A stretch of DNA of 64,000 bases from a virus (taxonomy: Duplodnaviria > Caudoviricetes). Both the position numbers and the translations under genes were made by a program. Location: IMG/VR virus record IMGVR_UViG_3300036783_000113, positions 1 through 64,000 of that record, one strand, 5' to 3'. Below are positions 20,020 to 20,640 of the stretch, one piece after another. The notes under the pieces are model-generated. The model searched no databases. It saw only the letters and a program-made list of their open reading frames with translations, and was not told the DNA's origin. Every line of letters begins with the position of its first letter. Position 1 is the stretch's first letter.

Positions 20020-20640
20020 TAAGTTGTCTTTTTTGACTGTTAGGAAAGACTAACATTAAACTATAAAATCTTAGTCATGTTGAGATAGTTTAGGCGAAAC
20101 CCTAAATAAATCATATCCGTCCTACTGCGATATTAAAAAAGAAGGCAAACATGACGTGGCGACACTGTTCGCGGACACGATAAGAAATAAACAGATGTCA
20201 GTAAAGACTCGAAAATCCAAGAGAAGGAAAACTCACGTACAGAAAACCCGAAAACGACAATTCGTAAAAATGGTTCTTGTTCACAAAGAAAAGTAGCTTT
20301 AAAACCTGTTAAGGCAAGAAACATTAATTCTTCCGAATTTAACTTCCGGTATACGTCCTGCATGTTCTGACAGGAGGTTGCGAAAACTTTATATCAACTA
20401 CAGTAAATAAGATTTGGACATGGTTTTAATTACTGGTTGATCCTACGGTTAAAGTAAAAGGTTAAAGAACCGTCTAGTCCCTAGTATAAAGTTCAGGTTT
20501 AAATGCGAACGTACTTTATACGTGAAAACTTTCCAAAACGTTATTCGCATACGGTTAGTGGTTATCGCATTAAGTTGAAAGGTTATGAGTGCGATAAAAA
20601 ATAATTGTTTGTTTTCGTTGAGCCAACTTAACTGTTGGCA
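20020..20640 (+). ncRNA. candidate large ornate ncRNA (ROOL/GOLLD-like)
   Basis: ~620 nt between tRNA-like elements with no credible ORF, more than 10 helices and a loop-loop pseudoknot candidate. Confidence 0.6.

Follow-up and report, generated by a model that had tools for sequence, protein, structure and literature searches.

Positions 20020–20640 of the DNA analysed here hold two compact, structured RNAs, which we call module A (20057–20195, ~140 nt) and module B (20343–20600, ~260 nt), both read from the + strand and set among units shaped like tRNAs. The window, that is, the whole stretch of DNA that was analysed, comprises the first 64 kb (64,000 nucleotides) of the 81,483-bp IMG/VR record IMGVR_UViG_3300036783_000113, whose completeness is rated at 100%. 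Its nearest relatives are Basilisk, Bak1/6/10, PBC4, pW4, BCPST/BCP6 and BSG01, siphoviruses of the Bacillus cereus group in the Sejongvirinae, and judging from its sequence the window phage is itself a Basilisk/PBC4-type siphovirus of this kind. The locus is bordered in all these relatives by small early genes (dUTPase, an RsfA-like regulator and gp23–25) on one side and by the structural/terminase module on the other. Pattern scans added seven true relatives (L042, L048, L108, L110, L119, L141 and L152), five from IMG/VR and two from metagenomes, the other ~120 pattern matches being due to chance. An earlier note, made from the letters of the window alone, had proposed a single ~600-nt RNA, either a ROOL/GOLLD member or a new large RNA class; its description of the stretch as non-coding, structured, tRNA-linked and unclassified holds, whereas the suggested place in ROOL/GOLLD and the picture of one RNA class do not.

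A non-coding interval with its own transcription signals

No credible open reading frame (ORF) is found on the + strand from 19552 to ~20960. The longest frames within 20010–20640 span 46 amino acids (+ strand) and 76 amino acids (− strand), and none is conserved in position, strand or length across the eight related loci compared, in line with the reading of the stretch as ORF-free. One candidate gene in module A, where a Shine–Dalgarno-like AGAAGG precedes an AUG, was rejected because the frame runs for only 10 codons in the window, 12 in CAM003 and 2 in Crookii.

Upstream lie two tandem sigma-A-type promoters on the + strand, at 19661–19689 (TTGACA-17-TACTAT) and 19798–19826 (TTGACA-17-TAAGAT with a TG extension), each matching 10 of 12 consensus positions; the earlier note had spoken of two consensus promoters. 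By blastn, the promoter-bearing block (19561–19870) is common to all Sejongvirinae relatives. A leader hairpin read from the sequence (TTCTACA/TGTAGAA, 19892–19925, + strand) stands 5′ of the first tRNA or tRNA-like unit, and at the same place in L119 the hairpin reads TTCTGTAC/GTACAGAA, a compensatory change recognized by eye. The sole terminator-like site in 19400–21100 is an intrinsic terminator at 20876–20917 (+ strand), ~45 nt 5′ of the first structural gene. Since the two promoters are followed by only one terminator, 19661–20917 is predicted to form a single non-coding transcription unit of ~1.1–1.2 kb. Our literature search found no transcriptome paper on these phages.

Two RNA modules preserved by compensatory changes

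Folding energy does not set the stretch apart. The minimum free energy of 20020–20640 gives z-scores of −1.35 (+ strand) and −2.05 (− strand), and those of the individual modules range from −1.0 to −1.7; the claim of structure rests therefore on comparison with relatives. The 'dense pairing' seen by the earlier note is supported by covariation, but is not above chance by folding energy (z −1.35). Likewise, its description of the stretch as A-rich fits 20057–20342 (40–44% A versus 34.6% window-wide) but not 20343–20600, which shows no enrichment.

Module A comprises four hairpins and two pseudoknots on the + strand. Helix H1 (ATCTTA/TGAGAT, 20068–73/20081–86) presents a loop (20075–80) that pairs with ACATGA at 20149–54 to form the putative pseudoknot PK1; H2 (20088–94/20101–07) closes the loop CGAAAC through TAGG/CCTA; H3 follows at 20113–17/20129–33; and H4 is a two-part helix (20155–61/20170–72+20176–79), next to which CTGTT (20165–69) pairs with AACAG (20190–94) in a second pseudoknot, PK2. 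Alignment A10 brings together nine distinct sequences of three lineages; in this structure 97.7% of its cells are paired and 10 pairs show compensatory changes; none of 500 shuffles was as good, and slid controls reached only 26–46% paired. A covariance model (R1) scores the module at 136–180 bits. The loop pairing GTCATGT/ACATGAC that would form PK1 is invariant in all nine distinct sequences, which agrees with pairing but gives no covariation and so leaves PK1 unproven.

Module B comprises six hairpins and a loop–loop contact on the + strand: P0 (20349–81, loop CATGTTC at 20361–67), P1 (20393–20441, loop GGACATGG at 20416–23, complementary to the P0 loop), P2 (ACGGTT/AACCGT, 20445–73), P3 (20484–20521), P4 (20531–63) and P5 (20562–97, with an invariant 20-nt loop). 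P0–P5 fold alike in each homologue folded singly. On a MAFFT alignment of seven sequences (A6), 95.5% of cells are paired with 10 compensatory pairs, against 31–42% paired in slid controls; on an alignment of eight distinct sequences fitted by covariance model (A9), 96.8% are paired with 21 compensatory pairs. Covariation among homologues, which the earlier note had named as a check on its proposal, is therefore present in both modules (10 pairs in A and 21 in B).

Several of the helices listed by the earlier note recur among those with compensatory changes, namely TAGG/CCTA (H2), the CTGTT/AACAG core of GACACTGTT/AACAGATGTC, TCCTG/CAGGA (in P0), GTATAAAGT/ACTTTATAC (P3), TTATCGCAT/GTGCGATAA (P5) and GCCAAC/GTTGGC, while ACGGTT/AACCGT is essentially invariant. 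The helix AAACTAT/ATAGTTT fails: it has no compensatory change, one of its pairs is broken in four of nine sequences, and its 3′ columns covary with other partners, in H1 and H2. G·U combinations outnumber A·C ones in the helices (12:1 for module A, 34:1 for module B), a bias that points to an RNA read from the + strand and speaks against both a double-stranded DNA signal and the − strand.

In all homologues except pW4, 7–8 nt of the P0 loop CCAUGUUC complement the P1 loop GAACAUGG. In pW4, P0 and P1 differ in sequence, yet the P0 segment GUGCCU complements the P1 loop AGGCAC, a match equalled by 18 of 2,000 shuffles; as GUGCCU belongs to a local stem when the pW4 sequence is folded singly, this support for the loop–loop contact is suggestive and no more. 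A longer-range pairing, CGAAAAC/GTTTTCG, which would close the ends of module B, carries an uncompensated change in Basilisk and Bak10 and was left as unsupported. No multistem junction or closing helix spanning the stretch was found, every supported helix being either a local hairpin or part of a pseudoknot within one module.

Both modules contain the loop sequence CAUGUU and a partner for it, AACAUG/GACAUG (20075–20081, 20148–20155, 20361–20367 and 20416–20423), so that pairing between modules or between molecules is possible besides pairing within each module. Module B also holds the motif GAAAACUUU twice in its joining regions (20381–20389 and 20524–20532) and five copies of GGTTA within 260 nt (sites 20447–20585), three of them conserved, and UAAAGUU in P2 could pair with AACUUUA.

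Modules combine differently across phages

Comparison of the stretch with seven related loci by blastn placed block boundaries at 20057, 20197 and 20341, and the blocks between them occur in different combinations. The order in the window is tRNA-like unit 1, a 49-nt spacer, A, module C (the A-rich spacer described below) and B; in L119 and L141 it is tRNA-Asp, tRNA-like unit 1, A and B, with 4 nt between A and B; in L152, tRNA-Trp, tRNA-like unit 1, C and B; in PBC4, BSG01 and BCPST, tRNA-Trp, tRNA-Asp and B; in Basilisk and Bak10, tRNA-Asn, tRNA-Trp and B; and in the Bastillevirus CAM003, tRNA-Asp, A and tRNA-Leu. These combinatorial layouts indicate that the conserved units are the modules and not a 600-nt RNA: at least three units occur separately and in different combinations among the relatives.

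Module B is present as one copy in all ten relatives, in each downstream of their tRNAs, and is 77–87% identical to its counterpart in every Sejongvirinae relative; it was found neither in Bastille-like phages nor in the temperate phage TP21-L. By this comparison of sequences, B is the constant of the locus and modules A and C are optional 5′ additions. Module C (20197–20342, + strand) is an A-rich, variable spacer of which the 5′ ~60 nt alone are common to L152, pW4 and TP21-L, and which is missing from L119 and L141, where A abuts B. The pairing AATGGTTCTTGT/GCAAGAAACATT falls in a window-specific stretch without homologue. The 49-nt spacer (20008–20056, + strand) is likewise specific to the window, tRNA-like unit 1 abutting module A in L119; it contains a small hairpin (TGTTAG/CTAACA) and a weak promoter-like sequence (TTGACT-18-TAAACT, 9/12).

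Module A (blastn block 20057–20189) has no counterpart in Basilisk, PBC4 or most other relatives, and 17 records of Bastillevirus and Wphvirus, Herelleviridae myoviruses with the same hosts, contain an element 83–87% identical to it. In CAM003, Bastille and Kamfam the first base of the element is the one that follows tRNA-Asp; the element takes up the whole 144 nt between tRNA-Asp and tRNA-Leu in CAM003, and in Bastille and Kamfam a further 90 nt separate it from the next tRNA. Module A has moved between two unrelated phage families with a common host, and its 83–87% identity across them shows that such RNAs travel as cassettes. The tRNA cluster that bears module A in Bastille also contains an HNH endonuclease gene (L010 309–752). 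As a speculation, co-conversion during homing would be one possible route of transfer between the phage families.

Beyond these phages the modules were not encountered: 72,556 plasmids gave zero matches, and a pattern scan of 185,579 species-representative prokaryote genomes gave three chance matches, all of which fail the covariance model. Each genome that carries module A or module B has one copy of it. The modules are restricted to phages of the B. cereus group and form narrow families.

tRNA-like units in place of tRNAs

ARAGORN calls no tRNA anywhere in the 64-kb window. Units resembling tRNAs do flank the stretch, as the earlier note had said. Unit 1 (19931–20007, + strand) mimics an acceptor/T-arm ending in CCA and has a D-like arm and a 6-bp 'anticodon' stem; because this stem closes a 5-nt loop, the unit cannot decode. 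L119, L152 and pW4 have conserved counterparts of it; the anticodon-like and acceptor stems carry compensatory changes, the 5-nt loop is the same in all four phages, and the block containing the unit (19925–20009) is common to pW4, L119/L141 and L152. Unit 2 (20645–20718, + strand) has the best tRNA score of the flanking units (25.1 bits to the Rfam tRNA model, cut-off 29), and unit 3 (20724–20788, + strand) scores 18.5 bits to tRNA-Sec. We considered and rejected the possibility that the flanking units are canonical tRNAs: ARAGORN calls none, the Rfam tRNA scores fall below 29 bits, and unit 1 has no 7-nt anticodon loop.

Unit 2 can be folded in two registers, one with anticodon CAG and a weak stem, the other with UCA and a C at position 33. 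A 'tRNA-SeC' reported downstream of tRNA-Trp/Asn in a paper on Basilisk-like phage (PMC6145125) is probably its counterpart. Units 2 and 3 vary among relatives, and L152 has an ARAGORN-called tRNA in their place. In L119 (6478–6600) the counterpart of unit 2 carries a ~60-nt insertion in the anticodon region, with acceptor and T arms kept.

All eight relatives checked have one or two tRNAs in the locus, in the sets Trp+Asp, Asn+Trp, Asp only or Trp only, while the window phage has none and carries the three non-decoding tRNA-like units only. As all canonical tRNAs have been lost while the promoters, leader hairpin, tRNA-like units, modules and terminator are kept, we infer that selection on this unit is not mainly for decoding.

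A tRNA-punctuated precursor as the probable source of stable RNAs

We consider 19661–20917 to be, probably, a non-coding operon whose tRNA-punctuated precursor is cut by host RNase P and RNase Z into stable RNAs. The carrier would be a lytic siphovirus of the B. cereus group, in which the host sigma-A RNA polymerase would produce, from the two strong promoters, one precursor of ~1.1–1.2 kb where tRNA-shaped units (true tRNAs in the relatives, three non-decoding look-alikes here) alternate with structured modules. The acceptor/T-arm mimics would be recognized by host enzymes, RNase P acting at their 5′ sides and RNase Z or exonucleases at their 3′ sides, and the structured pieces between the cuts would persist as stable RNAs. 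Excision at the flanking tRNA-like units, part of the earlier proposal, is plausible. The predicted product is a ~630-nt composite of A, C and B in the window phage; for CAM003, Bastille and Kamfam it is module A plus a short trailer, and for PBC4 and Basilisk a ~450-nt module-B RNA. Because the ~630-nt A–C–B composite would be released, a 600-nt excised RNA may exist in the window phage without being an evolutionary unit.

Most likely, the modules would be trans-acting: as folded RNAs, they would bind a protein of the host or the phage, or a component of RNA processing or translation, and would not work as antisense RNAs. The long invariant unpaired stretches and the pseudoknots point to shape-based recognition of a protein or RNA partner, and antisense action is less likely because the phage genome offers no complementary target. 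A role as antisense regulator of phage genes was tried and rejected, the shared 14-mers being confined to small ORFs at 56.8 kb, where they have the same orientation and are about as frequent as chance predicts.

Several points weigh against this interpretation. Folding energies, of the whole stretch and of the modules, are not significantly below those of shuffles. Because alignments A9 and A10 were built by fitting to the model structure, they are biased towards it. The homologue sets are small and closely related (nine distinct sequences for A, eight for B), so that some compensatory counts represent few events, and relatedness is not taken into account by the shuffle control. None of the tRNA-like units passes the tRNA models, which makes their recognition by RNase P and RNase Z an assumption. 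Modules A and B are directly adjacent in L119 and L141, and a joint function of the two in those phages and in the window phage is possible on that account. The search of the rest of the 81-kb phage genome for antisense targets returned chance matches only and so indicates no partner or target.

Among the RNAs of phage tRNA clusters (RNAC and RNAD of T4, GOLLD, ROOL and the long non-coding RNAs of phage K), none has an assigned role. To these the locus adds two compact RNAs of 140 and 260 nt, supported by covariation and carried by phages that can be cultured, among them Basilisk, PBC4, CAM003 and Bastille, on a host open to genetic work. Nature has in effect already made the knock-outs and swaps among these relatives, with A present or absent, with A+B, C+B or B alone, and with one phage that has the modules but no true tRNA; the role of passenger RNAs in tRNA islands is therefore testable by simple deletion and host-range work.

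Known RNA families and alternative explanations

We searched the 4,227 families of Rfam 15, adding a permissive search (E≤10) of 19500–21000, 20050–20205 and 20335–20645. The sole gathering-level match in the whole window is a full-length Pistol self-cleaving ribozyme (RF02679) in the early region, at 5975–6042 (+ strand; 78.5 bits, cut-off 34.5). In the permissive search of 19500–21000, tRNA-like unit 2 alone comes near its cut-off (tRNA model, 25.1 against 29 bits). The ROOL covariance model gives no gathering-level match window-wide and none at E≤10 in the three sub-ranges, even with permissive filters, and the GOLLD model has no match in the same searches. OLE, RNase P, group I/II introns, T-box, 6S, tmRNA, raiA and the known self-cleaving ribozymes do not match the stretch at E≤10. 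No Rfam family recurs across seven homologous loci, and modules A and B searched alone match none of the 4,227. That nothing in Rfam 15 matches the stretch agrees with the novelty claimed for it. No publication describing module A or B was found, in a search that did not extend to the ~10,000 viral RNA candidates catalogued in PMC10690425.

ROOL and GOLLD are structured RNAs encoded by phages and prophages, often close to tRNA islands; in GOLLD the 3′ domain is conserved, the 5′ domain varies, and the linker sometimes holds tRNAs (PMC5737381; bioRxiv 10.1101/2024.12.08.627333). The locus shares their context: its RNAs are phage-encoded, structured and non-coding, in every homologue the modules have tRNAs or tRNA-like units at their flanks, and no role has been assigned in either case. 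With GOLLD it also shares, as a resemblance only, a constant 3′ part (B) and optional 5′ parts (A and C). The differences are those of size, architecture and range. ROOL measures ~580 nt and GOLLD often >800 nt, against 140 and 260 nt for the modules and ~630 nt for the largest possible excised product; in place of the multistem architecture of ROOL, the consensus folds are serial hairpins with intra-module pseudoknots and the stretch is a mosaic; and the modules occur independently and are limited to phages of the B. cereus group.

Two related alternatives were weighed. In the first, module B, alone or together with A, would represent a new class like GOLLD or ROOL, cut from a tRNA island and very abundant, which self-associates through its conserved CAUGUU/AACAUG loop contacts, so as to build a higher-order particle or to capture tRNA-shaped RNAs or a host factor. 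We think this rather unlikely; if true, an operon without any decoding tRNA yet fully maintained would be the clearest natural evidence for a passenger RNA as the selected product. In the second, unlikely as well and slightly more so, A–C–B, or B with optional 5′ domains, would be one large RNA of complex fold and of a new class working like GOLLD or ROOL, excised from a tRNA island and multimerizing through loop–loop contacts. The phage-borne, tRNA-linked setting would suit such an RNA, as would the GOLLD-like division into constant and optional parts, the adjacency of A and B in L119/L141, and the CAUGUU loop and AACAUG partner of each module, which could pair between modules or molecules. 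It is opposed by the failure to match ROOL or GOLLD in Rfam, by the finding of A and B each alone in other phages, and by a fold that lacks multistem junctions and shows no long-range helix covarying between modules; the candidate closure by CGAAAAC/GTTTTCG is weakened by its uncompensated change in Basilisk and Bak10, and multimerization is pure speculation.

The stretch might instead act in cis on the structural genes downstream, as a leader that provides, for example, processive antitermination or transcript stability. Module B always lies 300–450 nt upstream of the first structural gene, albeit with the terminator in between, and in W.Ph. no further element separates module A from gp11 and the portal gene. 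Yet no gene follows module A in CAM003, Bastille or Kamfam, where tRNA-Leu (CAM003) or, after 90 nt, a tRNA comes next; strong sigma-A promoters would switch late genes on early; and no known antiterminator family matches. We hold this explanation to be improbable.

We regard as highly improbable a new self-cleaving or self-processing ribozyme in module A that helps to cut the tRNA-array precursor. Two pseudoknots and long invariant unpaired stretches do recall small ribozymes, module A always begins at the base after the 3′ end of a tRNA or tRNA-like unit, and the same phage carries the Pistol ribozyme. However, no known ribozyme family matches, ~140 nt exceeds most self-cleavers, and a ribozyme is unneeded where flanking tRNAs already offer RNase P and RNase Z sites. 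The one likeness seen, to RAGATH-27 (RF03100) at 20033–20116, scored 21.2–22.6 bits against a cut-off of 76.1; it was rejected as chance since control genomes score alike, and RAGATH-27 has no match in the module A homologues of CAM003, Bastille, W.Ph. and L119. Least likely of all, and barely credible, is a DNA-level signal (a packaging site or replication origin) or a set of decayed tRNA genes without RNA function, for although the stretch lies just upstream of the terminase region and tRNA genes have clearly decayed here, its hairpins are preserved by compensatory changes, the strong bias of G·U over A·C reflects single-strand selection on the + strand, and module A is kept at 83–87% identity in two phage families that otherwise have no DNA in common.

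The proposed processed operon has precedents in RNAs that arise beside or from tRNAs. In Escherichia coli, 3′ETS-leuZ is a functional RNA freed from a tRNA-precursor trailer or spacer by tRNA-processing nucleases, a short, little-structured sponge of small RNAs; the modules would share this origin in tRNA-precursor spacers or trailers, but are larger, highly structured and phage-borne. RNAC and RNAD of phage T4 are matured from a tRNA precursor and are, like module A in Bastille-like phages, placed within a phage tRNA cluster, although they belong to another host and phage lineage and are likened here by placement, not sequence; to our knowledge, pseudoknotted folds have not been described for them. 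A paper that treats these small stable RNAs from the tRNA region of T4 states that their 'biological roles are unknown' (PMC3014915). Phage K (Kayvirus) has long non-coding RNAs of unknown function that are abundantly transcribed and adjoin tRNA genes (PMC9241854), and these are Herelleviridae RNAs, defined by RNA-seq where our modules are defined by covariation. We rate modules A and B as two new, narrow-range structured RNA families, akin by context to the RNAs of phage tRNA regions.

Minor features of the locus

Between module B and tRNA-like unit 2, a conserved tail (GTTTGTTTTCGTTG) is followed by the hairpin GCCAAC/GTTGGC (20622–27/20634–39), the two together occupying 20607–20639 on the + strand, directly 5′ of the unit. 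The hairpin reads GCCGC/GCGGC in BCPST and L119 (alignment A8), and in the metagenome contig L152 (2573–2640) it carries a ~50-nt loop insertion. Within module C, 43 nt (20207–20249) are 93% identical to a segment of TP21-L (L012 1201–1243) that lies just upstream of and overlaps the start of gp53; the frames do not correspond. Near the end of the unit, weak matches to rli61, a Listeria RNA family (17–26 bits, cut-off 50), cover the terminator-proximal tail in the window (20829–20919) and recur in L001 (2884–2973), L006 (2314–2431) and L002 (2562–2679); they probably reflect a common terminator hairpin.

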